A DNA stretch of 64,000 nt from positions 75,394 to 139,393 of the forward strand of contig CAVYNY010000030.1 in the NCBI GenBank assembly GCA_963769935.1, read 5' to 3'. The DNA comes from an uncultured delta proteobacterium (lineage in GTDB: Bacteria > Desulfobacterota > Desulfobacteria > Desulfobacterales > JAFDCJ01). Of the stretch, positions 25,700 to 53,606 are shown in pieces (position 1 is the stretch's first letter; every line of letters starts with the position of its first letter). The translations under genes and the position numbers were made by a program. Below the pieces are notes generated by a model that searched no databases, was not told where the DNA came from, and was given only the letters and a program-made list of their open reading frames with translations.

Positions 25700-25753
25700 C
25701 CCCCAACGTTGCATAAGTATTTTTAACTCTTCGTGTCTCGTATTAGATAGGCC

Positions 25754-26020
25754 GTTGTTTTTACCGCGACGATGCTGGATGCTGGATACTTGTTGCAGCG
25801 CAGCGGAGATCCAGCTTTAGGGGGAATGCTGGATTTACTATCACGCCCACTTTCAGACTTCGCTCTTCGAGCTACGACCCGACAAGCAGTTCGAGTTCAC
25901 AGAGACCGCGGAGAATATTATTCTTTCGCCGCAGGCGGCTGCCAACTTTTACCTCTGCGACCTCTGCGCGCTCTGTGTGAGATATATAGTTTCATATATA
26001 GATCCAGTATCCAGGATCAC
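25754..26020. repeat. Heptamer-based palindromic intergenic element, copy 1, with a nested second hairpin element
   Basis: Left end gatgctggatgctggatact, right end atccagtatccaggatcac; interior contains cacagagaccgcggag...ctctgcgcgctctgtgtg. Confidence 0.6.
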
Positions 26021-26205
26021 GTATTATTACCAATGCCTTGCATTACAACGTCTCGTTTCAGGAAAATAAAGGATAAAGTGTCCCGGCGCGGAGGATCAGG
26101 CTTTGACTTCATGCCGGAAGGGGTAGCCCTGGCTGTCCAAAAACCCGTGAAGCGATGGAGTAATTGAGTAATGGAGTAGTGAAAATTTAAAAAGGAGGAA
26201 CGGAA

Positions 26206-27255: not shown

Positions 27256-27314
27256 GAGTGAATATACCCTGACATAAATCTTTTTGACGCTTCATGTTTG
27301 AAATTAGCAACACA

Positions 27315-27415
27315 GTCGTTTTTAGCGAGACGATCCCGGATGCTGGATACTCGATGCTGGATATACTGGAATTCGCCGGGAGTCAGACATGGATCCATCC
27401 AGTATCCAGGATCAC
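27315..27415. repeat. Heptamer-based palindromic intergenic element, copy 2
   Basis: gtcgtttttagcgagacgatcccggatgctggatact...atccagtatccaggatcac; the last 19 bp are identical to 26002-26020. Confidence 0.65.
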
Positions 27416-27511
27416 TTACTTGTACCCATGACTTTCATTAGTAGCGCTGAATTGAAGCTGATATTTTATGCAACTTTAGAGTAACATTGCACAACAAGGA
27501 AAGTCGATGTC

Positions 27512-38187: not shown

Positions 38188-38447
38188 TGCATCACCGCTA
38201 TGAGAATTCTGTAAAAATGGTTTTCGTTGGGGCAAAGAAGACCGGCTCTGAGTAGAGCATGACTGCCGGCTGCCAGAACCGACCGCCGGCAGTGTTCCGG
38301 CGGCGCCGATCCGGTTCCTTATTACGACGTGGGGCCAGTTTGAAATCCAGGGAGAAGCGTTTGAGTCTCAAGATCCTGACTGAGAGAATATGCAGCAACA
38401 TCAGAACACAATCGGCGTCCTCAACTGTACAATTAATAGCATCATCT

Positions 38448-38494
38448 GTATTTTGTATTTCACCAAATACCAAATACTAAATTGATCTGTCAAC
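38448..38494 (-). promoter_or_regulatory. Promoter with a 13-bp inverted repeat (operator candidate)
   Basis: gtattttgtattt-cacc-aaataccaaatac (one mismatch) beside a minus-strand TTGACA at about 38488-38493. Confidence 0.55.
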
Positions 38495-38532
38495 AATTTC
38501 TTTAATTGAGTTTAGAAATGAAAGAACTATGC

Positions 38533-38779
38533 TTAGCCAGACGAGATAATAATCTCATCTTTTCGGCTTATGAACGTGAAAAACCCCTCTTCGTCCTTAA
38601 TGCCGATATCTCCGGTCAGCATCCACATCCCTATAAATTTTTCTTTTGTTGCCGGAGGGCTCCTCCAACATTCCTTTAAGACCACCGGATTCCTATCTGT
38701 CGCCTTTACGGCTGTCTCATCTTGTTCTCCTGGTGAAAGGATATTGCCGTTCTTTTCCAGGACCTCGAGGGCAGCCGGG
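38533..38779 (-). pseudogene. Degenerate fragment of an AMP-binding (acyl-CoA synthetase) gene
   Basis: Reads LEVLEKNGNILSPGEQDETAVK...WMLTGDIGIKDEEGFFTFISRKDEIIISSG*, covering the TGD and RxDxxI motifs, with no start codon and a premature stop. Confidence 0.7.
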
Positions 38780-38782
38780 CAA

Positions 38783-40673
38783 TTAATTCCATTTTATCTT
38801 TAATTTGATGGGCAAGTCGATGAAAGCATGGATCATTTCCACTTCGGTCTCTTGTCTATTTATTTCCACCTTGCCCAAATTAATGACTACAGTTACATTA
38901 GTTGTGCCATCTTTGAGAGTTTCGGTCGTGATATCAGCAATAGTCCTTTGATCTATGTATTTCGATAGAATCTGGCGCGTCTTTTCCTTTACTCCCAATT
39001 CGCGAAGAGATGGTTTGAATATTTTTCCGACAGTCGTCGTTGGCATCTCTGCAATCTCAAAAATTTTTTTAGGTTTGGCCGGTGGTTCAGCAATGTGCTT
39101 GATCATATATTTTTCGAAATCCACAATGTCCAGATCTTTGCCCGGTGCCTTTACGACAAAGAGAATCGGCACCTCACCGGCATACTCGTCAGGCATACCC
39201 ACAGCGGCACTCAGCGCTACCGCTGGATGGGCATCGGCAACTTCTTCAATAGAGGCCGGATCAATATTGTGGCCGCTACGAATAATGAGATCTTTTTGGC
39301 GACCAGTTAAAAACAGCCTATTTTCATCATTCATATAGCCTAAATCTCCGGTCACCAGCCAGCCGCCTTCCAACAAAGCCCCGGCATTATGCTGCGGGTC
39401 TTTGTATCCCGGAAACACCTGCGGTCCGCGAACCAGCACGGCTCCTATCTCCCCGACATCGCATTTAACCACGGTTTCATTTTCAAGTTCTTTCTGTCTG
39501 GCAACCATAAGGTCGGAAAAAGGAACCCTCAGGCCGGCCGATCCGAGAATCCGCTTCCCCATGACAGGATTGCTCGAAATCATGGCACCCGTCTCCGTCA
39601 TTCCGTATTGTTCGTAAAGCGGGCCGTTTATCTTTTTTTCGAAACGCTCACCGACAGGCACCGGACATAGGGAACCACCCGTGAAGCCCATTCGCACGGA
39701 TGAAATGTCGGCATCTCCAACCGGGACATCGGAAATGGCAACAATGGCCGTTGGCACGCCGCCTACGATTGTCGCTTTATACCGTTCAACAATTTTCCAA
39801 TAGTTGCGAAGTATATCCTGGTTTCTCAAACCATAGGGGGAAAGAATGACATCGTGCGCACCGGCGGCCATTCCGGACATGCCCAGTGATATCGTCCCTC
39901 CGACATGAAACATCGGCAGACAATTCAAAACCACATCGGTTTCATCGATGCGCCACATCTGCGCAAACGCCCAGGCACCATGGATCTGGTTGCCATGGGT
40001 CAGCTGCACGAGCTTTGGAGTTCCGGTTGTACCCCCGGTGTGAAACAAGGCGGCGATTGTATTTCTGCCTATTTCTCTGGCAAAGGTTAAACGGTCATTA
40101 GGATAGGCCTTGACCGTTTCATCGAAATCATGCATGCGGCTATCTTTTGCCGGCCCACCGCCGAGAACGAATATCTTTTCGATCATATCTGCTTGGGCGA
40201 TGACTGCCTGGACCTTTGCCCAAATGTCTTTGTCCACATTCGGACCGGGAACGACGAGAACCTCCGCATTTTCCGCATGCAGCAAATCAACGATTACGTC
40301 GGGATTGAGAAGGTAGTTGATGCTGCTCACAATACCGGCCGTCTGCGCACCCCAGATCGTGGCCGGGATTTGGTCATAGGTCGGAGAAATAATGGCGACG
40401 ACACCGCCTTTTCTCGTGACCGTATCGTACATCATGTTGGCCACACGCGTAACTTCTCGCAATAGTTCTTTATTGGTCCGGGTATGGGCGGCATCGTCTA
40501 AATTGCCTGAAGGCAGAACCGTTAACCCCGGTCTGTCAGGGTAAAGTGTAGCAGTGGCAGTGAAAAGATCATAGACACTTTTTGCTGTCACCAATTCGTC
40601 ATAAGGTTTGCTTCTCAAGGGATTCAATATCCTCGAGGCCTCTAATTGGTATGGTGCATTTTGTTGTTCTCAT
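38783..40673 (-). pseudogene. Acyl-CoA synthetase copy B with a +1 frameshift near codon 22-23 (pseudogene or sequencing error)
   Basis: ATG at 40673 gives MRTTKCTIPIRGLEDIESLEKQTL*. CAAACCTTAT here versus CAACCTTAC in copy A. FHTGGTTGTPK, YGMTE and TGD are intact downstream. Confidence 0.8.
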
Positions 40674-40725: not shown

Positions 40726-42225
40726 TCAATGGACAGCTGCATACATTACCATTGTCTCGGTTGCGTCTTCAGCATTGAATTCCTCAACGATACGCCCTTG
40801 ACGGGAAACAAGAATACGGTCGGACAAATGGAGAATTTCAGGCAAATATGATGAAATGACGACGATCGCCAGGCCATCGTCCGCAAGTTTATTTATAATC
40901 TGGTGAATTTCAGTTATCGCCCCGACATCTACGCCGCGAGTCGGTTCATCGAAAATGATCAGCTTCGGGCGTTGCGCGAGCGCTTTGGCAATCACGACCT
41001 TCTGCTGATTTCCTCCGGATAATTCGATGACGCGCGCATCGTTTCCGGTGGCCTTGATGTTGAGGGTCTTGGTCCATTCTTCCGCCATTTTCCGCATTTC
41101 ACTCATATTGACGATGAAACTCCTGGTCAATCCGGCAGTCATCGCCGCTATGTAAATGTTCCGCGCAATGGACATCGTTTCAAAAAAGCCCTCGATTTTC
41201 CGGTCTTCGGTTACATAAATAATCCCGTCCCTGACTGCCGGCTGCGGCACTCTGTACCGGACGGATCTGCCTTCTAATTTTACTTCTCCGCCATGAACGA
41301 GGTCTCTCTTCACAACCCCGGCAATAATTTTGGCAGTCTCGGTTCTGCCGGAACCAACCAGGCCGAAAATTCCGGTAACTTGTCCCGCAAAGACTGAAAA
41401 GGAGTTGTTACGAACAATATTCTGCATCGACAAATTCTGGACGCTCAATACCATTCGACCGGCTTTTCTTCTTTTTCTGCCTTGCGCACTGACATCATAG
41501 AGCTCACCACCAAGCGGTCGTCCGACCATGGCTTGAACGATTCTATCTCTAGTAAAATTAGAAGCGGCATCGGTTACTACTTTTTCACCATCACGAAGCA
41601 CTGTAATACGATCTGCTGATTGCAATGCTTCCTCCAACACGTGTGTTATAAATATTATTGTAACACCGGCTTGGCGCAGGCGATTCAGTAAAGCAAAAAA
41701 ATGATGTTTTTCTTCAGGCGTCAGCGTAGCAGTTGGTTCATCAAAAATGATGATGCGGGCATTATAGTACACAGCCCTGGCGATCTCGACCATCTGCTTT
41801 TGCGCTGCACCGAGCCTCGCCACCGTTACCGAGGGGTTTACTGAAAAATTAAGAGATTGAAGATATTGCTGCGCCGCTATGTAAATCGTCCGAAGCCGAT
41901 TATAAAATTTTTCTTTTCCCAAAAACAAATTCTGGGCAACCGTGAGCGACGGCACAAGGCTGGTCTCCTGAAACACCATTGCAATACCGTGCGCGATGCC
42001 ATCTGTCGGATGATTTATTTTAATGGGTTTTCCATCGAGTATAATTTCTCCCGCGGTCGGCGTAACGGCTCCTGCCAGTATTTTTGTCAACGTTGACTTA
42101 CCGGCGCCGTTTTCGCCGACCAAAGCATGGATTTCGTTCTCTTCCAGGTCAAAATCCACCTTCTTGAGAACCGGAACCCCTTTGTATTCCTTGGTCATAC
42201 TCTTCATCTGGAGAATTACAGCCAT
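40726..42225 (-). CDS. Monosaccharide-type ABC ATP-binding protein (two domains)
   Basis: GENGAGKST, FDEPT and LSGGNQQKV. Confidence 0.92.
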   Translation of the reverse strand: MAVILQMKSMTKEYKGVPVLKKVDFDLEENEIHALVGENGAGKSTLTKILAGAVTPTAGEIILDGKPIKINHPTDGIAHGIAMVFQETSLVPSLTVAQNLFLGKEKFYNRLRTIYIAAQQYLQSLNFSVNPSVTVARLGAAQKQMVEIARAVYYNARIIIFDEPTATLTPEEKHHFFALLNRLRQAGVTIIFITHVLEEALQSADRITVLRDGEKVVTDAASNFTRDRIVQAMVGRPLGGELYDVSAQGRKRRKAGRMVLSVQNLSMQNIVRNNSFSVFAGQVTGIFGLVGSGRTETAKIIAGVVKRDLVHGGEVKLEGRSVRYRVPQPAVRDGIIYVTEDRKIEGFFETMSIARNIYIAAMTAGLTRSFIVNMSEMRKMAEEWTKTLNIKATGNDARVIELSGGNQQKVVIAKALAQRPKLIIFDEPTRGVDVGAITEIHQIINKLADDGLAIVVISSYLPEILHLSDRILVSRQGRIVEEFNAEDATETMVMYAAVH

Positions 42226-42230
42226 AGTGT

Positions 42231-43304
42231 TTATCTCTTCTCAATCCGATCAATCGGATATGATGCGACCATGCCGTCGCCTTTAACGGCCAGCAACAAT
42301 CTTGCCTTATGTTCCATGCAACTTGTGATGCCGTGCTTTGACCCGTCGGCTCTACTGTGTAAACTGCCGACCGGCTGGAAGTTGCCGTCTAGCCGGATAA
42401 CCAAACCATAGGATCGGGCAGGAGACCATGGTTTCATTATTCCCAACTGCTTGACGCCTCCGGCTTGCAGCGGCTCATAGAGCGATTTATTGCTGCGTAG
42501 GGTCGGAGCCAGCCAGAAATCGGGATCAATGTTTTCCAGCATTAATTTACGGTATCTTTTTTCTCGCAGCACAAACTCCACCAACTGGCTGCGGGGAGCA
42601 AATACAGTCAGCCAAATGCCGTTCTCACGAGCCGGCGCCATCCGGGAGACATAGCCGGGCAAATGCCCCAGCACCTCATCCGGCGGCTTGCTCCCGTCTA
42701 AAAAGATTCTGAGGAGCCGGCTCCGCCAACTTTCCGCAACAATAAACATTTTGCCGTCATAATAAATGCCATACGGAAAAGCCAAGCCGCCGCAGATCTT
42801 GGTCTGCTTACCAGTGGCTATTTCGACACGCCATACCGATCCCGATGAATTCTTTTCCATAAGATCTCTCTTCCACTCATTGTACTTGTTTGTGGCAGAT
42901 CCATGGGTGACGAATAAGTGGTTGTCGGAATCGGCCTGCATCGCTGTGGGGCAGTTGGCTCCTTTATTTGGTTTAATGATTTTACCATTGTCCGGTCCAT
43001 TGACAATGGCGATCCGGCCATCAATTAATCCAACGGCCAGTCCTCCATTTGGTAATCCCGTCATACAGGATATCTCGACATCGAAACGGGCGACCTCTTT
43101 GGCTCCATTATCGACTTCCAAGATTTTGGAACGGCTGCTGACAACAGGTACACCGTTCATAATCGCAAGGCAATCCGGAGCGTCAACAATCAATAATTTT
43201 TCAGTTTCTTCTAATAGCTCATTTGGCATTAACGCCCCGTCCAATGGAGGAACGGTAATCGAGAACTCTCCGCGACCTAAATATTTCTTTATCATCCTTA
43301 TCAT
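42231..43304 (-). CDS. Strictosidine synthase/SMP-30-like beta-propeller protein
   Basis: GLAFPYGI, VAESWRSRL and LPGYVS; ATGA overlap with the upstream fusion gene. Confidence 0.75.
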   Translation of the reverse strand: MIRMIKKYLGRGEFSITVPPLDGALMPNELLEETEKLLIVDAPDCLAIMNGVPVVSSRSKILEVDNGAKEVARFDVEISCMTGLPNGGLAVGLIDGRIAIVNGPDNGKIIKPNKGANCPTAMQADSDNHLFVTHGSATNKYNEWKRDLMEKNSSGSVWRVEIATGKQTKICGGLAFPYGIYYDGKMFIVAESWRSRLLRIFLDGSKPPDEVLGHLPGYVSRMAPARENGIWLTVFAPRSQLVEFVLREKRYRKLMLENIDPDFWLAPTLRSNKSLYEPLQAGGVKQLGIMKPWSPARSYGLVIRLDGNFQPVGSLHSRADGSKHGITSCMEHKARLLLAVKGDGMVASYPIDRIEKR

Positions 43305-45424
43305 GAGCGGTCTCCCCAATATGATAACTTTCCTGTCCAGGAAGTATCCGCACCTGAAAGACGAATCCGGCCGATGCGATTGTTATTAATCCCGCCCAGG
43401 TATAAATAGCCCCGATGCTCACGCATTGATGTGACCATCGGATGATTCTCCCCGCCGAGATCCCAAAATGATTCGAGGACTTCACCGTGATCGTTAAACT
43501 TAATCACACAACCTGTGTTAATGTTCGGGAACAACCATTCATCGCTGGCTACTCTGCGCGACATTCTTTTGCGAAAACCGGGCATTGTCATTGCCAGATC
43601 ATACGTCGGTGTTCTCATACCAACGAGCGCCAGCCAGTAATGGCCGTCGGAGGATCGATTGATATTATCCGGATAGCCCGGTATATTGGGTAAAATACTT
43701 TCAACCTTGCCGGCCTTCGGCCCATTCAGCCAATAACGGCTGACCCGGCATCCCCATGTTTCCGCAAAGAAAAACGAGTTATTATCATGCGCCACGCATA
43801 CACCATTCGAAAACACAAGATTCCTGATAAGCGTTTTGGTCTTCTTATTGGAAGGGTCGTAGCAAAGAATACGTCCGTTTCCTCTACTCTCAAGAGAATC
43901 CACCGGCCATTCGTGCATTTCATAGCGTTTTGTTGCTTCGCTGAAGAATACTCTTCCATCCGGCGCTACATCCAAATCATCGGCCAGACTCAAGCGAGAG
44001 TCGTCGATTATCGACCAAGGGGTTCTGTTGGTTTCATCCGTCAATTTGGTGATTGATCTGTCTTTACCAATGCTGTAAAGTCCCATTCCCCCGATGCAAA
44101 CCAGAATATTGCCGTTTTTGTCCCATGCCAATCCCAATGGCCTGCCGCCGCAATGCGCAAATACTTCCGGCTCTTTATACTCAGGTGCTTTGAAACGAAT
44201 AATATCCCCTATTCTATTGCCTGTATAGATATCGTCATTATTGTCCAGGAGGATGTCTTCCGGTCCATCGATTTTGCCGAGTCCGATCAGCTCGACATCG
44301 CGCAGGCGATCATTAATTGCGTAAGGTGATGCTGATCCTGCCTCCGTGGCCGGAGGCGGCGGAAGCGGAAAATAAGTTGGGGAAACATAAACTTTTGTTA
44401 ATATTTTGTAACGGTTTTTAATAAACCGAATGTCAACAATCACTGCAAACAGAAGCATTATACCCAGAAATACTTGAGTGGCACCACTCTGCAGTCCAAG
44501 GCGAATCAAGCCGTTAGTTAGAAGAAGAACTATAAGGGCGCCCATAACTGCCTTGGCGGCCGAACCTCTGCCTCCGCCTAAACTGTTTCCCCCGACCACG
44601 GCAGCAGTAAGCACCATGAGTTCAAGCCCCACGCCGGTATCGGAGCCTACGCTGGAGAGTCTTGTTGCATACAGAAAGCCTGCCATGCCAACAAGAATAC
44701 CGGCCGCGATATAAGTCAGACAAATATCGCGTTTTACTGCGATCCCGACGTTATAAGCCGAGCGACGCGCCCCGCCTATCGCCATAATACGCCAGCCGGG
44801 CTTCATACGGCTGATAACTAAATGGACGCTGACACCGACAATCATAAGCACCCAAAAACTGGAAGGAATTTGCAGCAGAGTCCCTTCTCCGAGGAAATCC
44901 CATATGGGGGAGTCCGGGAATTTACCCGCCATGTCGGTAGCATAGCGCAAATACAATAAGTCCACGATTGACCTGACGATGACGAGCGTGACCAGCGTTG
45001 TAAGGAAAGCGCGAAGCCGCAGATAACCAATCAATATACCATTGACGAGGCCGACGAGCGCTCCAATCAGAAGAGACGCCATTAACACGGGCACTATCGG
45101 CCAACCCGCAAGAGATGTTAGTCCCAGTGCGGATAAATTTACCAAGGCGAATGTGGAGGCGACGCTAAGATCGATGCCGCCGGAGACCATGACGACCATC
45201 ATGGCAATTACGATTATGCCAAACTCACCTAGCTGCCGAGAGGTGTCGACCAGACTGCCTGTTGTGAAAAAATCCGGAATGATTGTACCTAAGCTTGTAA
45301 CAACGGCAATTAAAACCAGAAACGGAATTAAATTATCAACCCAACGCTTTGTCAGGATTTCACCTATAAGGTGCGTCGGCAGATAGACATAGCGAAACCT
45401 CATCGCTCCATTGTATAAAGACAT
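43301..45424 (-). CDS. ABC permease (RbsC-like) fused to a C-terminal strictosidine synthase-like propeller
   Basis: N-half GGIDLSV and AVVGGNSLGGG; C-half DGPEDI, GGRPLG, LADDLDV, VFSNGV and PGYPDNI. Confidence 0.88.
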   Translation of the reverse strand: MSLYNGAMRFRYVYLPTHLIGEILTKRWVDNLIPFLVLIAVVTSLGTIIPDFFTTGSLVDTSRQLGEFGIIVIAMMVVMVSGGIDLSVASTFALVNLSALGLTSLAGWPIVPVLMASLLIGALVGLVNGILIGYLRLRAFLTTLVTLVIVRSIVDLLYLRYATDMAGKFPDSPIWDFLGEGTLLQIPSSFWVLMIVGVSVHLVISRMKPGWRIMAIGGARRSAYNVGIAVKRDICLTYIAAGILVGMAGFLYATRLSSVGSDTGVGLELMVLTAAVVGGNSLGGGRGSAAKAVMGALIVLLLTNGLIRLGLQSGATQVFLGIMLLFAVIVDIRFIKNRYKILTKVYVSPTYFPLPPPPATEAGSASPYAINDRLRDVELIGLGKIDGPEDILLDNNDDIYTGNRIGDIIRFKAPEYKEPEVFAHCGGRPLGLAWDKNGNILVCIGGMGLYSIGKDRSITKLTDETNRTPWSIIDDSRLSLADDLDVAPDGRVFFSEATKRYEMHEWPVDSLESRGNGRILCYDPSNKKTKTLIRNLVFSNGVCVAHDNNSFFFAETWGCRVSRYWLNGPKAGKVESILPNIPGYPDNINRSSDGHYWLALVGMRTPTYDLAMTMPGFRKRMSRRVASDEWLFPNINTGCVIKFNDHGEVLESFWDLGGENHPMVTSMREHRGYLYLGGINNNRIGRIRLSGADTSWTGKLSYWGDRS

Positions 45425-45445
45425 TTTTTAAACCTTCTAAGGAGT

Positions 45446-46477
45446 CTATTTCTTTATCAATTCAGCAGGGTCCCAGCAAGAATCGGATTTGATGGTTTCT
45501 TTATTGATCAGTTGCAATGGGGAAAGTATAGAAACCTTGTACTCTCCCGGCTTGACTTTAGACTGCAGCAGGTATGAAATCAGAGCGAAAATATCACGGC
45601 CCTGTCCGGGAACATTGTAAGAAATAACTTCGTCAAAGGTCCCATCCATAACGTTGTCACAGGAAAACTTGGCGCCGCCGCCGGAGGTATTCAAGTATAC
45701 CGGCTTATCCCGTTTGGCCCGTTTATTAAATTCCTGGACTGCCGCAGCGGTACCGGTGTCCATTACGTCCCACATTCCCATAATCCCGCAAATGTCCGGA
45801 TTTGCCTGCAGAATTGTAGCTGTGATGTTGCGGGCTTTGGTCGCATCCCAGTCCGCAGCCTGGTCGGCAACGATTTTTATTTCGGGATGTTGGGACAGGA
45901 CATTCTCGACACCTTTCCTGGCAAAACCGCTGGCGCCCGAGGTAACAACCCCCTGCACAATTGCCACTTTACCGCTTGTGCCCGAGCCTTCGCCGCAGAC
46001 CTTAACGATTTGTTCGGCCTGCATTTCACCGATCCGGGTATAGTCGGCTCCCACGAATCCGGAACTTCCCATGCTCGATCTCATGTTAACCGAGATTACA
46101 TAAATGCCGGCCCGTTCAGCTCTCTGGATAAGCTTGGCATAAGAATTCACATCAGGATTATGAACTACGATTACGTCCGGTTTCTGCGAGATCAGGGAGG
46201 TAATAGCCTGGGCCCCGGCATCGATATTATAATTCGGATCACGTATTGAAAAATCCATTCCCACGTCGGTTGCCAGGCTTCTCAGAGTAGCGGCCCAACC
46301 ATCCGTCAAGTAAGAACCCATAGCAACGGGGACAAACACGATCTTTTTTCCCTTGAGTGCTTTATAATAATCGAGACGCGCCGGATCATCAACGCCCGCT
46401 GCCATAGCGTTTTGAAGCATCGCAGCACCGATGACGAATGAAATTGCCAAGCATAAAATTGCCCATCTCTTTTTCAT
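45446..46477 (-). CDS. Sugar-type ABC substrate-binding protein, copy B
   Basis: Signal peptide MKKRWAILCL; near-identical to 48412..49443; RBS AAGGAGG. Confidence 0.88.
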   Translation of the reverse strand: MKKRWAILCLAISFVIGAAMLQNAMAAGVDDPARLDYYKALKGKKIVFVPVAMGSYLTDGWAATLRSLATDVGMDFSIRDPNYNIDAGAQAITSLISQKPDVIVVHNPDVNSYAKLIQRAERAGIYVISVNMRSSMGSSGFVGADYTRIGEMQAEQIVKVCGEGSGTSGKVAIVQGVVTSGASGFARKGVENVLSQHPEIKIVADQAADWDATKARNITATILQANPDICGIMGMWDVMDTGTAAAVQEFNKRAKRDKPVYLNTSGGGAKFSCDNVMDGTFDEVISYNVPGQGRDIFALISYLLQSKVKPGEYKVSILSPLQLINKETIKSDSCWDPAELIKK

Positions 46478-48381
46478 TTTCTTACCTCCTTGGTTTGCCA
46501 TTTTATCTTTAAATTGATCGGCAGGTCTATGAAAGCATAGATTATTTCCGCTTCGATCTCTCGTTTGTTTTTTTCTACCTTGCCTGAATTAACAACTACC
46601 GTAACATCAGTTTTGCCGTCTTTGAGCGTTTCCGTCCTGATATCAGCAACAGTCCCTTGATCCATGTATTTCGATAGAATCTGGCGCGTCTTTTCCTTTA
46701 CTCCCAGTTCGCGAAGAGATGGTTTGAATATTTTTCCGACCGTAGTCGTCGGCATCTCTTCAATCTCAAAGATTTTTTTAGGTTTGGCCGGTGGTTCAGC
46801 AATGTGCTTGATCATATATTTTTCGAAATCCACAATGTCCAGATCTTTCCCCGGTGCCTTTACGACAAAGAGAATCGGCACCTCACCGGCATACTCGTCA
46901 GGCATACCCACAGCGGCACTCAGCGCTACCGCTGGATGGGCATCGGCAACTTCTTCAATAGAGGCCGGATCAATATTGTGGCCGCTACGAATAATGAGAT
47001 CTTTTTGGCGACCAGTTAAAAACAGCCTATTTCCAACATTCATATAGCCTAAATCTCCGGTCACCAGCCAGCCGCCTTCCAACAAAGCCCCGGCATTATG
47101 CTGCGGGTCTTTGTATCCCGGAAACACCTGCGGTCCGCGAACCAGCACGGCTCCTATCTCCCCGACATCGCATTTAACCACGGTTTCATTTTCAAGTTCT
47201 TTCTGTCTGGCAACTATAAGGTCGGAAAAAGGAACCCTCAGGCCGGCCGATCCCAGAATCCGCTTCCCCATGACAGGGTTGCTCGAAATCATGGCCCCCG
47301 TCTCCGTCATTCCGTATTGCTCGTAAAGAGAACCATTGATCTTCATTTCAAAACGTTCACCGACAGGTACCGGACATAGGGCTCCACCCGTGGTCCCTAT
47401 TCGCACGGATGAAATGTCGGCATCTCCAACCGGGACATCGGAAATAGCAACAAGAGCCGTGGGAACGCCACCGATGATGGTCGCTTTATACCGTTCAACA
47501 ATTTTCCAATAGTTGCGAAGTATATCCTGGTTTCTCAAGCCATAGGGGGAAAGAATGACATCGTGCGCACCGGCGGCCATCGCGGACATGCCTGACGATA
47601 TCGTCCCTCCGACGTGAAACATCGGCAGACAATTCAAGATCACATCTGTTTCATCGATACCCCACATTTGCGCAAACGCCCAGGCACCATGGATCTGGTT
47701 GCCATGGGTCAGCTGGACGAGCTTTGGAGTTCCGGTTGTACCCCCGGTGTGAAACAAGGCGGCGATTGTATTTCTGCCTATTTCTCTGGCAAAGGTTAAA
47801 CGGTCATTGGGATAGGCCTTGACCGTTTCATCGAAATCATGCATGCGGCTATCTTTTACCGGCCCACCGCCGAGAACGAATATTTTCCTGATCATATCTG
47901 CTTGGGCGATGACTGCCTGGACCTTTGTCCAAATGTCTTTGTCCACATTCGGACCGGGAACGACAAGAATTTCCGCATTTTCCGCGCGCAACAAATCAAC
48001 AATTACGTCGGGGCTAAGAAGATAGTTGATACTGCTCACAATGCCTGCCGTCTGGGTACCCCAAATTGTGGCCGGGATTTGGTCATAGGTCGGAGAAATA
48101 ATGGCGACGACACCGCCTTTTCTCGTGACCGTATCGTACATCATGTTGGCCACACGCGTAACTTCTCGCAATAGTTCTTTATTGGTCCGGGTATGGGCGG
48201 CATCGTCTAAATTGCCTGAAGGCAGAACCGTTAACCCCGGTCTGTCAGGGTAAAGTGTAGCAGTGGCAGTGAAAAGATCATAGACACTTTTTGCTGTCAC
48301 CAATTCGTCGTAAGGTTGCTTCTCAAGGGTTTCAATATCCTTAAGATCTCTAATCGGTATCGTATACTTCGTTGTTCTCAT
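46474..48381 (-). CDS. Acyl-CoA synthetase (AMP-forming), copy A, intact
   Basis: FHTGGTTGTPK, LPMFHV, QYGMTE, TGDLG, GRQKDLIIRSGHNI and VGKIFK. Confidence 0.92.
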   Translation of the reverse strand: MRTTKYTIPIRDLKDIETLEKQPYDELVTAKSVYDLFTATATLYPDRPGLTVLPSGNLDDAAHTRTNKELLREVTRVANMMYDTVTRKGGVVAIISPTYDQIPATIWGTQTAGIVSSINYLLSPDVIVDLLRAENAEILVVPGPNVDKDIWTKVQAVIAQADMIRKIFVLGGGPVKDSRMHDFDETVKAYPNDRLTFAREIGRNTIAALFHTGGTTGTPKLVQLTHGNQIHGAWAFAQMWGIDETDVILNCLPMFHVGGTISSGMSAMAAGAHDVILSPYGLRNQDILRNYWKIVERYKATIIGGVPTALVAISDVPVGDADISSVRIGTTGGALCPVPVGERFEMKINGSLYEQYGMTETGAMISSNPVMGKRILGSAGLRVPFSDLIVARQKELENETVVKCDVGEIGAVLVRGPQVFPGYKDPQHNAGALLEGGWLVTGDLGYMNVGNRLFLTGRQKDLIIRSGHNIDPASIEEVADAHPAVALSAAVGMPDEYAGEVPILFVVKAPGKDLDIVDFEKYMIKHIAEPPAKPKKIFEIEEMPTTTVGKIFKPSLRELGVKEKTRQILSKYMDQGTVADIRTETLKDGKTDVTVVVNSGKVEKNKREIEAEIIYAFIDLPINLKIKWQTKEVRK

Positions 48382-48411
48382 CTTAATTCATCGATTTCAA
48401 ATAGTTAAAGT

Positions 48412-49443
48412 CTATTGCTTTTTTAATTCAGCAGGATCCCAGCAAGAATCGGATTTGATGGTTTCTTTATTGATCAGTTGCAATGGGGAAAGTATAGAAA
48501 CCTTGTACTCTCCCGGCTTGACTTTAGACTGCAGCAGGTATGAAATCAGAGCGAAAATATCACGGCCCTGTCCGGGAACATTGTAAGAAATAACTTCGTC
48601 AAAGGTCCCATCCATAACGTTGTCACAGGAAAACTTGGCGCCGCCGCCGGAGGTATTCAAGTATACCGGCTTATCCCGTTTGGCCCGTTTATTAAATTCC
48701 TGGACTGCCGCAGCGGTACCGGTGTCCATTACGTCCCACATTCCCATAATCCCGCAAATGTCCGGATTTGCCTGCAGAATTGTAGCTGTGATGTTGCGGG
48801 CTTTGGTCGCATCCCAGTCCGCAGCCTGGTCGGCAACGATTTTTATTTCGGGATGTTGGGACAGGACATTCTCGACACCTTTCCTGGCAAAACCGCTGGC
48901 GCCCGAGGTAACAACCCCCTGCACAATTGCCACTTTACCGCTTGTGCCCGAGCCTTCGCCGCAGACCTTAACGATTTGTTCGGCCTGCATTTCACCGATC
49001 CGGGTATAGTCGGCTCCCACGAATCCGGAACTTCCCATGCTCGATCTCATGTTAACCGAGATTACATAAATGCCGGCCCGTTCAGCTCTCTGGATAAGCT
49101 TGGCATAAGAATTCACATCAGGATTATGAACTACGATTACATCCGGTTTCTGCGAGATCAGGGAGGTAATAGCCTGGGCCCCGGCATCGATATTCCAATT
49201 CGGATCACGTATTGAAAAATCCATTCCCACGTCGGTTGCCAGGCTTCTCAGAGTAGCGGCCCAACCTTCCGTCAGGTCAAAGCCCATGGCACAGGGGACA
49301 AACACGATCTTTTTTCCCTTGAGTGCTTTATAATAATCGAGACGCGCCGGATCATCAACGCCCGCTGCCATAGCGTTTTGAAGCATCGCAGCACCGATGA
49401 CGAATGAAATTGCCAAGCATAAAATTGCCCATCTCTTTTTCAT
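48412..49443 (-). CDS. Sugar-type ABC substrate-binding protein, copy A
   Basis: PBP type I pattern with signal peptide; RBS AAGGAGG. Confidence 0.88.
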   Translation of the reverse strand: MKKRWAILCLAISFVIGAAMLQNAMAAGVDDPARLDYYKALKGKKIVFVPCAMGFDLTEGWAATLRSLATDVGMDFSIRDPNWNIDAGAQAITSLISQKPDVIVVHNPDVNSYAKLIQRAERAGIYVISVNMRSSMGSSGFVGADYTRIGEMQAEQIVKVCGEGSGTSGKVAIVQGVVTSGASGFARKGVENVLSQHPEIKIVADQAADWDATKARNITATILQANPDICGIMGMWDVMDTGTAAAVQEFNKRAKRDKPVYLNTSGGGAKFSCDNVMDGTFDEVISYNVPGQGRDIFALISYLLQSKVKPGEYKVSILSPLQLINKETIKSDSCWDPAELKKQ

Positions 49444-49507: not shown

Positions 49508-50488
49508 TCAGATGTCACCCTGCTGTGCGGTTTGCTCATCGCGGGGATTCATTAGGCTGTCTATGATGATGGCAATCAGGAGAATGCAGCTCTTGACAAC
49601 ATTTTGCAGGGTGTATTGGATATCCATGATGGTCATGCCATTCCAGAGAACTCCGATCAGGAGCGTGCCGACAACAACATTGCGAATGCCGCCTCGCCCG
49701 CCCGAAAGACTTATGCCGCCGATGACGACAACCAGAAGCACGTCATATATGAAAGTCCCGGTAACCTGGCGTGTATTGACGGAAGCCACGGTCACGGCCG
49801 AAATGATTCCCGAAATATAACCAATAAGAGCGGACAGCGTGTACTGTAAGACTATTATCGGACGAACCGGTATTCCAACTATGCGAGATGCCTCAAGGTT
49901 ATCGCCGATCGAGTAGATTTGTTGACCTGGCCTCGTAAATTTCAGGAAAAGAGCGGTTAAGGTCAAAACCACAATAAAAAATATCACCGGCATGGGTATA
50001 ATGCCGAAAAGATATTTATTTCCCATCCAGGCAATCGCTGAAGCGTTCGGCGGCATATAAACAACTTCAAAATCGATTAGCTTGAGCCGCACGATGCCAA
50101 AAACAAAGATTCCCATTGCCAGCGTGCAGAAGATCGCCGGAATTTCAGCGAAGGCAATGATCAACCCATTGGCCAGGCCGACCAAAATCGCAAAACCGAG
50201 CCCTATAATCAGAGCGGTCTCAATAGAAAAACCGTGGCCGGCGAGATAAAAGGCCCAGGCAGTAGACATCGCCATAGTGGAAACGATCGAAAGGTCAATC
50301 CCCCGACCCAGGACGACTACGGCCATTGCCGTGGCGAGAATTCCCAGTGCGGAGACATTCCGGACAAGTGTAAACAAATTCTCGGCAACAAAAAAGCGTT
50401 CAAGCGTAACGGAGAATACGACAAAAAGCGCCACCGTAATCCCAATTACAATTTTCTCCTGTGTGATATGAAGACGAGATAGCAACAT
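49508..50488 (-). CDS. Monosaccharide-type ABC permease
   Basis: RGIDLSI and VVIGGISLSGGRG; likely start MLLSRL. Confidence 0.88.
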   Translation of the reverse strand: MLLSRLHITQEKIVIGITVALFVVFSVTLERFFVAENLFTLVRNVSALGILATAMAVVVLGRGIDLSIVSTMAMSTAWAFYLAGHGFSIETALIIGLGFAILVGLANGLIIAFAEIPAIFCTLAMGIFVFGIVRLKLIDFEVVYMPPNASAIAWMGNKYLFGIIPMPVIFFIVVLTLTALFLKFTRPGQQIYSIGDNLEASRIVGIPVRPIIVLQYTLSALIGYISGIISAVTVASVNTRQVTGTFIYDVLLVVVIGGISLSGGRGGIRNVVVGTLLIGVLWNGMTIMDIQYTLQNVVKSCILLIAIIIDSLMNPRDEQTAQQGDI

Positions 50489-50840
50489 CTTATCTGCAAG
50501 TTCCTTTAATTTATGAATTTCAATCAGTGAAAATAAAATAGGCGAGATTGGCCTGCCGTGCATTAAAATGCGCGCATTTTTTTTGTATATCAGTGCAAAA
50601 ATACCGCTAATTCGAGTTTCAAGACGGCGTTTCAATGGTTGCAGGATTCCAAAGCTGCTTGGAGATGTCTTGACACTGGCTAAAGAGAGGAATTGATAGG
50701 AAAATAGCGCTTGAAGAGCGCGATGGAATCTGCAGACACATATTGAATGAAAAATTTGCGCCAACGCAATGAATATATTAATCAAAGCAGTGTTGCTGCT
50801 TCGGAGCCACCCTTTGTTGGCCGCCCTCCTGATCCTTTCT

Positions 50841-50881: not shown

Positions 50882-52616
50882 TTAATAAGTAGCGCAGGTG
50901 AAGCTTGATGCCAGGTTGACATCACCGGATTCCTTTATATTTCGGCCAACTCGGATATTCGCACAGCGGACGGGTGCGCCCCGGTACACCGACGCTATCG
51001 GTTACAATTTGATTCGTCGGAGCGAGTCCTTTTTCCACCCAGTTTTCAAGCGCGGTAAGCGAGTCCCAGGAAGCGTTGAACACTGAACTGAGTGCATGGC
51101 CATAACCCGGGACCTCGTAAAACCTGACAAAGGTGTCGACCTTCGCATGTCCCATTTGAGCTACCAATTGCTGGTAGTATTGCTCGGTAGAACGGGTGGC
51201 GACAAGCACATCGGAAATACCATGGGCCATCAGCAACTTACCGCCGCGGGCGGCGAACGCAGAAATATCGGTTTTCGCGGTAAACAGAGCGCTGAGTTCG
51301 CTGATGCGACTGCCCCAAGCTCCGGGGTTTTCGGGGTCGAGATTGTAAGAGTCGAAATCCGGGTCTCGCGTCACCATATACTTGATCCACTGGTCAACCA
51401 TCAGACTGATATATGGTCCGGTCTGGGCCTGGGGATTTTTCGGCTGAGTTGTTCCGAGGGCCAGCCATTTCACATATTTCTCTATTGGGCTTCCGGTATC
51501 CATGCCGAGATCGCTACCCCACATATTGTAACCGGGAAATTGCGTGTCGCCGCTGGCAAGAAAGTAGTTGAATTGTGTATCTGTACCGAGCGCCTTCAAC
51601 GCTGTGATCTGCGCATCCGAGAGACAGGTGTCGCCGGTGTCTTTTCCGTCCGGGCAGCGCAATGGAGCGCCTTTAAAGGTCGCTTTCGCGGGATCGAATA
51701 TCGCGTTACATTTCACCTGGTAGCTGACCAGGCCATCGGCAACTCCATCCAAGGCATCGCAAGCCTCCATTGCTGCATCAAAGATCAGCTTCTTCTTTGC
51801 CTGGTTGGGATAGGCCCCCGGCTTTGATAGTTCAAGGTTCACCTTGTGGCCGGCAAGCCAGGCGGGAACATTAGTCCATACCGGATACCAGGCGATAGCC
51901 CCGTTCCAGTCAGCGGGCCAGCGCTGGATAGCGGTTAGCGCTTCGCGTCCGCCGGTTGATCCGCCTGCAAAATACATCTTGGCAGGTCTTTTGCCATAGC
52001 GGGCGTTGATGATTGCGAGTGCAGCATCGTGGGTTTTCTTCAATGCGTCGCCGCTGAAGTTGCGCACAGCCTCTTCGTTGATGAAAGACGAGCCGTCCTG
52101 CGAGCCATATTTGCCGGCCTGGTGACCGGAGTCACTGCCGAAGGTAGCATAGCTTTGCCCTAAAGGCGTCGGTTGATTCGCCGGACCGGCGGGCACATTC
52201 TGGGCTACATTCGGGATACGGCCGTTGAAACCCCCGCCGCCGAACATCAGCGCTTTCTCGTTCCATTTTGTAGGCAGGGCGACATGGAACAGAATTTTCG
52301 GCGCATCGGGGTCCACGGGATTGATTTCGCCTTTCACCAGGCAATATTCTCCGATGGCTTTGGCACCTGTCAGGAGTTTGCCCTCTTTACCGTCTTTATC
52401 CTTTTCTCTGGCCGCTGGGACTACTTCTGTGCTGGTGACCATGGCCCCGGTGGCCGGCAAGCCGATCGAAGCGGCGGGAATCACCATGCCGTTGAGTTCC
52501 TCGCAGGTCATTGTTGCAGCGGCCGAGGCACTGTTACCAAATCCGATAGGTCCAAGGCCAATGATTGCTGCTACGGCCAACACCACGGTAAATAACTTTA
52601 TTCTGCAGATATTCAT
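50882..52616 (-). CDS. Secreted tannase/feruloyl esterase family hydrolase with a +1 frameshift in the last ~17 codons
   Basis: Signal peptide, GGGGFNG, SDSGH, GGSTGGRE, HGISD, PGYGH and RTRPLC. Removing one A at 50930-50931 restores KGSGDVNLASSFTCATY*. Confidence 0.85.
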
Positions 52617-52646: not shown

Positions 52647-53606
52647 TCAACTATAGTTCTTCATTAGATTTCGTAATTTTCGCGGTGCCATTCCAAATTC
52701 TTCCTTAAATAAACGGGAAAAATGAGAGGAACTATTGAATCCCATAGAAAATGCAATACTTGTGATGGAGTCATTTGCGTATTTGTCACTAACAAGCTTC
52801 TGGTGACATTTGATTAGTCTTTGCTCGCGAACCCATTCAGAAACCGAAATCCCGCTGCTCGTAAACAGGTAATGCAAATACCGCAAAGATATTCCGTTGG
52901 CTTTTGCAATATTGGCCGGTGATAGATCCGGGTCATCAAGTCTGCTGTCAATATAAGATTTAACCGACTGGAGACGGAAATTTTTGCTTATATTTTTATA
53001 GGATGATTTGTGCTCAATTTCGACATCTATATACACGGCTAAAAGATCGATTAATTCCGACGCAACTTTCGACGCAATTTCCTTTTTAAAGGAATCCGAA
53101 TCAGCGGCAATTAATTTGCAAAATGTTACCAAAGCCCAGCCCAATCCCTCAGAGAAATTCAACGAGGCGGGTTTTGAAATCTTGTCATTTGAGCATCTTT
53201 CAACCAACATCGGCCGCGGTATCTCGATGTATATCGATTGGCAATGATCACGGCATGTTAAATGATATGGTTTCGTTGAATCAAACAGTACGGCCATGCC
53301 TGGCGCAGAAACCTTCTCTTTGCCGGACTGCTGCACCAGAAGTGACCCTTTAGATGGAAACATAATATAGATTACTTCCTTATCCAGATGGGCAATATGA
53401 TTGGATCTTCGAAATATATCCTGCCTTGACAAAAAGACATCAGTCAACACGGCTGGTCCAAGAACTGACTTTTCTAGAAACCCAGTGTAGTTAGCTGGAT
53501 CATCACTGCAGACATCGACGTTCAGATAGTGCTCGCATATAGCTTCTTGCCAAGCTGTAAAGCGTTTGATCTGATCTAAATCTTTAGTAGAAAAAACTGT
53601 TTTCAT
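52647..53606 (-). CDS. AraC-family activator (FeaR-like N-domain)
   Basis: FSTKDL...RFTAWQEAI, ISLRYLHYLF and ITSIAFSMGFNSSSHFSRLFK. Confidence 0.9.
   Translation of the reverse strand: MKTVFSTKDLDQIKRFTAWQEAICEHYLNVDVCSDDPANYTGFLEKSVLGPAVLTDVFLSRQDIFRRSNHIAHLDKEVIYIMFPSKGSLLVQQSGKEKVSAPGMAVLFDSTKPYHLTCRDHCQSIYIEIPRPMLVERCSNDKISKPASLNFSEGLGWALVTFCKLIAADSDSFKKEIASKVASELIDLLAVYIDVEIEHKSSYKNISKNFRLQSVKSYIDSRLDDPDLSPANIAKANGISLRYLHYLFTSSGISVSEWVREQRLIKCHQKLVSDKYANDSITSIAFSMGFNSSSHFSRLFKEEFGMAPRKLRNLMKNYS

Follow-up and report, generated by a model that had tools for sequence, protein, structure and literature searches.

Two near-identical binding-protein genes in a CUT2-type importer cluster of an uncultured deltaproteobacterium carry two family-wide versions of the same five residues

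Arrangements in which a single ATP-binding cassette (ABC) translocator works with several binding proteins are termed 'relatively rare' in the accessible part of one account, the examples given there including HisJ and LAO with HisQMP2, and OppBCDF (PMC3971661); the accessible part of another describes a peak of divergence under gene conversion in the primate red/green opsins and in RHCE/RHD (PMC3924837). The locus considered here lies within a 64,000-nucleotide stretch of an uncultured deltaproteobacterium (GenBank assembly GCA_963769935.1, contig CAVYNY010000030.1, positions 75,394 to 139,393; hereafter the window), and resembles both: like HisJ/LAO–HisQMP2 and OppBCDF it encodes two receptors, binding-protein copies A and B, with only one set of membrane and ATPase genes, as a first-pass annotation of the same DNA had supposed in assigning two receptors to one ABC transporter. 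The HisJ/LAO and Opp receptor pairs are well diverged over their full length, whereas copies A and B are 98% identical, differ in five sites plus their last residues, and are accompanied by a downstream enzyme that is duplicated too. As with the opsins and RHCE/RHD, the duplicates appear to be kept alike by conversion around a narrow island of old differences, synonymous ones included, that surrounds functional residues; the present case differs in that it involves a bacterial transport receptor, that the island consists of two spots (codons 51–59 and codon 83), that the two versions also occur as single alleles across species, and that the function of the island is a predicted one. The literature searched, in which subscription journals were mostly uncovered, yielded no description of this importer family or of such a receptor pair, and the combination of conversion islands, several receptors per translocator, five-residue cross-species alleles and a co-duplicated two-state ligase is not found in it; both ingredients are known.

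Pairwise comparison of the two copies, each of 1032 nt on the minus strand and offset by 2966 nt, yielded 15 nucleotide differences and seven residue differences. The reading frame is uninterrupted in each, signal peptides are the same, a GGAGG ribosome-binding site precedes both genes, and their homology extends upstream for 19 nt, covering that site with one difference. Eight of the 15 differences fall within codons 51–59, where V51C (two nucleotides), S55F, Y56D and D59E are accompanied by synonymous changes at 52, 54 and 57; the remainder consist of two in codon 83 (TAT in A, TGG in B), a silent change in codon 101, and a terminal group of four in codons 336–343, namely two synonymous changes plus I341K and K343Q. 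When 15 differences were placed at random, none of 200,000 placements put eight within 27 nt, and none left an identical run of at least 704 nt. The alignment bears out the first-pass annotation, made by eye, in respect of the two near-identical copies and their offset, the 27-bp patch with eight substitutions of which three are synonymous, and the few places outside it (one Tyr/Trp codon, one silent change and the last codons). That annotation had, however, set codon 83 apart from the patch, whereas the two belong to the same linked set of residues, and it had not recorded that the gene between the receptor copies is a paralogue of CoA (coenzyme A) ligase 1.

Extension of the comparison to 116 close proteins in which all five sites could be read, many of them near-copies of one another, assigned 62 to the B version (C51 F55 D56 E59 W83), 38 to the A version (V51 S55 Y56 D59 with Y or F at 83) and 16 to neither, nine of these 16 having V-F-D-E-W, the usual state of distant homologues. 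Mixing of the A and B states was confined to a single protein, which has F83 but is B-like at the remaining sites. Rarer patch types, with V or A at 55 and D56 (P0137, P0143, P0145, P0016, P0023 and P0030), suggest more than two cleft states in the clade.

The agreement extends to codons: A-type loci in other species have the codons of copy A, including the synonymous GGT54 and TTG57, so that comparison with orthologous loci, a check proposed in the first-pass annotation, recovered the patch versions in the same codons elsewhere. Across codons 51–59 copy A is 89–96% identical to three full-length A-type loci and 70–74% identical to B-type loci. Within the island, genes of the same type from other species resemble each copy more (89–100%) than its own paralogue does (70%), while outside it, over codons 102–335, the paralogues are closer to each other (100%) than to the nearest other loci (92–93%), a twofold pattern expected of duplicates under gene conversion with a selected island. 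A and B do not differ in the 70 nt that separate the patch from codon 83, although the loci of other species differ there by 3–10% or more, and two distinct spots thus persist in an otherwise uniform stretch.

A tree of the receptor backbones, built from 45 rows after removal of residues 48–66 and 83 and with three far outgroups left out, required nine changes of type, and monophyly of the A type was rejected (approximately unbiased test, p-AU 0.0012). Near-identical A/B pairs were also recovered from four other lineages, which stand 90–95.5% from each other and from this one: the backbones within each pair are 98–99.7% identical, their differences lie in residues 1–92 bar one substitution, and these always include the same five sites. 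Among 24 close loci, 18 in which both flanks could be seen hold a single gene in the standard slot, A in four and B in 14. Across species, A and B thus behave like alleles, of which this genome has both. Since most relatives carry one or the other singly at one slot, the pair is better regarded as the union of two old alleles than as the product of paralogue divergence within this lineage. The 'older paralogs' of the first-pass annotation were correct as to age, the patch being much older than the backbone identity, but probably not as to kind, A and B being family-wide alternatives that are usually single.

Further indications of conversion came from the ligases duplicated with the receptors. 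Ligase 1 and ligase 2 are 93% identical, but as a mosaic in which identical runs of 242, 183 and 178 nt stand amid blocks of 76–92% identity, equivalent to species-level divergence, an arrangement reproduced in none of 20,000 simulations. In addition, both ligases of the window have A486 and D518, and both ligases of a second strain have T486 and E518: strain-specific changes common to both copies point to gene conversion. Homogenisation by conversion had been proposed on the first pass from the receptors; its signs are seen in the co-duplicated ligase, a part of the duplicated unit that had then been missed.

An AlphaFold model of the receptor (predicted local distance difference test, pLDDT, 82) matched the RbsB and AraP folds with Z scores of up to 27.9, residues 43–327 corresponding to 1–271 of 2dri (Z 24.3) in agreement at the ends with a profile alignment to Escherichia coli RbsB (probability 99.9%); a single-sequence fold of copy B was poor (pLDDT 45). 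The patch was missed by a shallow version of the profile alignment and covered by a deeper one, which equated residues 51, 55, 56, 59 and 83 with S9, N13, P14, V17 and N41 of RbsB. S9 and N13 are given as ribose-pocket positions in the accessible part of PMC6858440, and N13 also in that of PMC2630998. By alignment, the earlier claim that the patch lines the ligand cleft is supported at 51 and 55, which correspond to known pocket positions, and not at 56 and 59; residue 83 does not align to a pocket position either. In this fold the loop containing residue 83 would lie beside the first loop.

Membership of Peripla_BP_4 was clear (PF13407, 155 bits against a cut-off of 35; two-domain alpha/beta fold), and a binding protein, RbsC-like permeases and a two-domain ATPase in one cluster identified a CUT2-type ABC importer. 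The locus thereby shares with the CUT2 importers RbsABC, AlsABC and AraFGH the type I fold (Z 24–28), RbsC-like permeases and an RbsA-like ATPase. It differs from them in that all NCBIfam scores fall below cut-off (48–72 bits against the 335–510 bits set for the RbsB-type ribose, allose and xylose equivalogs), that one permease is fused to a propeller, that the neighbours are CoA enzymes and not sugar kinases, and that the polar sugar residues are replaced: N13 of RbsB is F or S here, and D89, R90, R141, N190, D215 and Q235 correspond to N131, M132, A186, W236, G267 and Y287. Because CoA enzymes and lactonase-like propellers share the operon, a hydrophobic ester or lactone appears the likeliest class of ligand, and the importer is best described, from its sequence, as an orphan CUT2-type system whose ligands are probably related non-sugar esters or lactones.

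The ligases share the adenylate-forming fold of the PRK07529-like acyl-CoA synthetases and 4-coumarate:CoA ligases (4CL). Their best NCBIfam match was PRK07529 at 565–578 bits, under the 632-bit cut-off, and their best match in the PDB was poplar 4CL (E 5e-44): residue 330 aligns to its Lys303 and residue 263 adjoins its Ser240, both of which are discussed as important in the accessible part of PMC5239791, and 4CL Tyr236 aligns to Gly258. The pocket proved to have two states, 65 of 96 homologues with both sites having L263 plus F330, 26 having other, smaller residues at both, and five being mixed.

Receptors and ligases were paired through equal contig sizes between protein listings, together with two loci read directly. 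A small residue at 263 accompanied the A-type receptor in four of four cases and the B-type in one of 11 (Fisher p 0.004), in a count that excluded contigs with two ligases, receptor fragments and V51-F55-D56 types, and from which an impossible match at 1556 bp was dropped. Five exact size matches occurred at 2.9–7.7 kb, against 0.24 expected, on contigs too short for the standard gene order (~7.7 kb), and in three further contigs two ligases seem to be present; extra receptor–ligase modules may therefore recur. The contigs encoding P0152, P0156, P0165 and P0167, all under 7 kb, apparently carry a receptor together with a ligase, and P0253/P0263 and P0246/P0290 belong to two-ligase contigs.

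Taken together, these results make it fairly probable that the window holds two real receptor copies with old, family-wide versions of five linked residues in or close to the predicted cleft, the rest of each gene being likely kept identical by conversion and the versions likely kept by selection, with one importer shared between them. Both versions exist across many deltaproteobacteria, usually one per operon. A unit running from binding protein to ligase would then have been duplicated in tandem or captured, one copy subsequently losing its membrane and ATPase genes, to give the order permease, copy B, ligase 2, copy A, permease-propeller, propeller, ATPase, ligase 1; in the simplest history the unit was duplicated and three central genes were lost from the first copy. 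The junctions fit such duplication and loss: ligase 2 has no stop of its own and reads through the ribosome-binding region of copy A for six added residues, its eventual stop sharing 4 nt with the start codon of copy A, and the ligase leader follows copy B only a few bases past the stop of the latter. Recombination between the copies appears since to have overwritten both pairs, the receptors almost throughout and the ligases blockwise, and tracts that erased residues 51–59 or 83 would have been selected against. The identical backbones should dock on the same permeases, in which case both receptors would feed the one encoded importer with different, related ligands. At the weakest step of the scheme, copy A would work with ligase 2, the small pocket residues of which suggest a bulkier acid, and copy B with ligase 1.

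A number of observations weigh against this interpretation. Conversion, as judged from the sequences, is indicated by the ligases and not directly by the receptors, and polishing bleed could mimic ligase changes shared within one assembly. Support in the backbone tree is modest: no more than two changes are forced by its starred branches, and the types show some clustering, 7–8 of 500 shuffles being as low. Loop residues 51–60 were modelled with only moderate confidence (pLDDT 67), and the RbsB equivalents of 56, 59 and 83 (P14, V17 and N41) fall outside the accessible parts of the published pocket lists consulted. The receptor–ligase pairing is weak, having included one certainly false match, drawn on small numbers and related genomes, and involved short contigs with ambiguous pairing in three of 15 cases. 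Finally, the two-receptor array was found in none of the 24 close loci, and five whole genomes gave one receptor match each, for which reason the members of the other near-identical A/B pairs may come from different strains, as alleles and not paralogues. A second genome with the array was likewise not found among 60 relatives, 400 genomes of the order, and 21 and 81 genomes of two other families, the relatives and the order yielding only 40–46% homologues outside this genome.

Of the other explanations, a false tandem mis-assembled from two strain variants is very improbable. The assembly is of the uncultured type, with 5.4% contamination and single-base indels nearby; the short-read contigs from six runs are fragmentary, none spans the whole array, and the copy B/ligase 2 junction is not among the pieces listed. 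However, a contig from run X3 crosses the ligase 2/copy A junction without mismatch (46452–46693), X3 contains both the A and the B patch, and X4 crosses from the permease into copy B and also links the end of ligase 2 (12 nt) to the start of a binding protein, X3 and X4 being two samples of one study from which the window itself may derive. A read-through tail encoded at no other junction was moreover present in proteins of two other assemblies, P0225 (2226-bp contig) and P0346 (118,105-bp contig), the latter, from the second strain, also encoding ligase 1. Low cover of ligase 2 in X1 proves nothing, and mosaic ligase contigs in X1, X3, X4 and X5, which may be graph chimeras, were not used as evidence. 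The duplication is real and mis-assembly unlikely, and the possibility raised on the first pass that reads might expose an artefact is made improbable by these junction contigs and tail-bearing proteins. Recent duplication followed by new loop mutations in this lineage, whether by chance or under fast positive selection, would also leave identical backbones, but is counted as refuted: both five-residue sets occur in the same codons in many other species, and two of the three synonymous changes among the eight in the patch largely track the family types. It retains hardly any credence.

A greater, though still small, likelihood attaches to capture of an allele without ongoing conversion of the receptors. 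In such a scheme A and B alleles recombine between strains, a second copy is gained from a close strain, or a duplicate imports a patch, and the backbones are alike through recent ancestry. The single A or B genes of the close loci, the near-identical A/B pairs among metagenome proteins and a ligase-2-like end at the ligase 1 position in X2 would all accord with it, but ligases of the same unit that are 76–92% identical outside converted blocks, as between species, would not, and neither would the strain-specific changes common to both ligases, the identical 70 nt between patch and codon 83, or the differences retained at the gene ends. Rather less likely again is that the two receptors bind the same ligand with different affinity or kinetics, A and B being tuned to different concentrations. 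The copies agree at every other position aligned to the pocket, the alignment places three of the five sites in the second shell, and both versions serve the same operon in relatives; against this, the changes are large at the N13 equivalent (F/S) and at 56, where an acidic residue replaces an aromatic one or the reverse, and the ligase pocket, too, has two states that appear to follow receptor type.

A wider proposal may be entertained, tentatively and with clear doubt: that the five residues of the receptor are matched to the two of the ligase pocket as a specificity cassette shared across species, in which a few codons would switch import and CoA activation of ligand class A or B jointly and which recombines repeatedly onto fresh backbones, and that some genomes stack both settings on one importer, where they are held apart against constant gene conversion. 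If true, the cassette would constitute an opsin-like two-channel sensor assembled from trans-species alleles in a bacterial catabolic operon, and the pair a clean bacterial case of old functional polymorphism made permanent in two copies, something recorded for the most part in genes of animals. This importer family occurs widely, and a pair that differs at five putatively cleft-side residues, with matching ligases, amounts to a ready-made specificity experiment, the A/B difference being small and testable: one ligand screen could name the substrates and reveal how few changes switch specificity. The distinction is invisible to standard annotation, since A and B fall together when proteins are clustered at 90% identity.

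Table 1. Features of the receptor pair and its gene cluster, numbered by position in the window.
Feature	Position	Strand	Remarks
Binding protein copy A, 343 residues	45446..46477	-	Signal peptide, Peripla_BP_4; V51 S55 Y56 D59 Y83; adjoins permease-propeller gene, upstream of it
Binding protein copy B, 343 residues	48412..49443	-	C51 F55 D56 E59 W83; directly downstream of first permease
Patch of copy A, codons 51–59	46301..46327	-	Loop after strand 1 and start of helix 1
Patch of copy B, codons 51–59	49267..49293	-	
Codon 83 of copy A, Tyr (TAT)	46229..46231	-	Second island, linked to patch family-wide
Codon 83 of copy B, Trp (TGG)	49195..49197	-	
704-bp run identical between copies	45471..46174 = 48437-49140		Backbone, probably homogenised
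Ligase 2 end to copy A start	46474..46500	-	Duplication junction
CoA ligase 2, 635 residues	46474..48381	-	Pocket state S263/T330
CoA ligase 1	38783..40673	-	Pocket state L263/F330; 629 residues in another assembly
CUT2-type permease	49508..50491	-	Start approximate
CUT2-type permease fused to strictosidine-synthase-like propeller	43301..45424	-	
Stand-alone strictosidine-synthase-like protein	42231..43298	-	Weak Pfam match; start approximate
Two-domain ABC ATPase, RbsA/AraG type	40726..42225	-	
Tannase/feruloyl-esterase-family gene	50922..52616	-	Upstream; not conserved as a neighbour
AraC-family regulator	52647..53606	-	61–67% identical gene upstream in 10/24 close loci

As transcribed, the cluster runs from the AraC regulator through the tannase-family esterase, permease, copy B, ligase 2 and copy A to the permease-propeller, propeller, ATPase, ligase 1 and a GntR regulator (Table 1); the order in relatives is permease, one binding protein, permease-propeller, propeller and ATPase, often then a ligase and an enoyl-CoA hydratase. 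One surplus base near 40603–40607, probably an assembly error, disrupts ligase 1 at its start, since four runs are without that base and another assembly has the 629-residue protein. In the tannase-family gene the contigs miss single bases at 50934 (four runs) and 52231 (one run), and the true C-terminus may be longer; as a clue to the ligand this gene was set aside as weak, a homologue (55%) being present in one of 24 close loci. A scan for promoters and terminators between the genes of the cluster gave nothing decisive. A GC-rich hairpin stands directly 3' of the binding-protein stop in nine related loci and is absent at 45425–45445 and 48382–48411. The enoyl-CoA hydratase, found 3' of the operon in nine of 11 loci checked, is absent at 38235–38783, the best match in this genome being 40% identical and on another contig.

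The same genome has two more complete operons of the family (G000:C13:224387-231173 and G000:C40:1382-8137), each with its own receptor, ~41% identical and with a different first loop. Elsewhere, an alphaproteobacterial operon of the family (L029:8854-10939) has two tandem binding proteins that are only 72% identical, loci L071 and L073 contain two operon copies back to back, the second cut by the locus end, and an A-type locus (L047:630-3282) lacks the first permease between its AraC gene and binding protein. At a distance from the cluster, the spacers flanking a TRAP (tripartite ATP-independent periplasmic) binding-protein gene, at 25712–26045 and 27273–27440, contain direct repeat pairs of 85 and 53 nt that are 75–79% identical.

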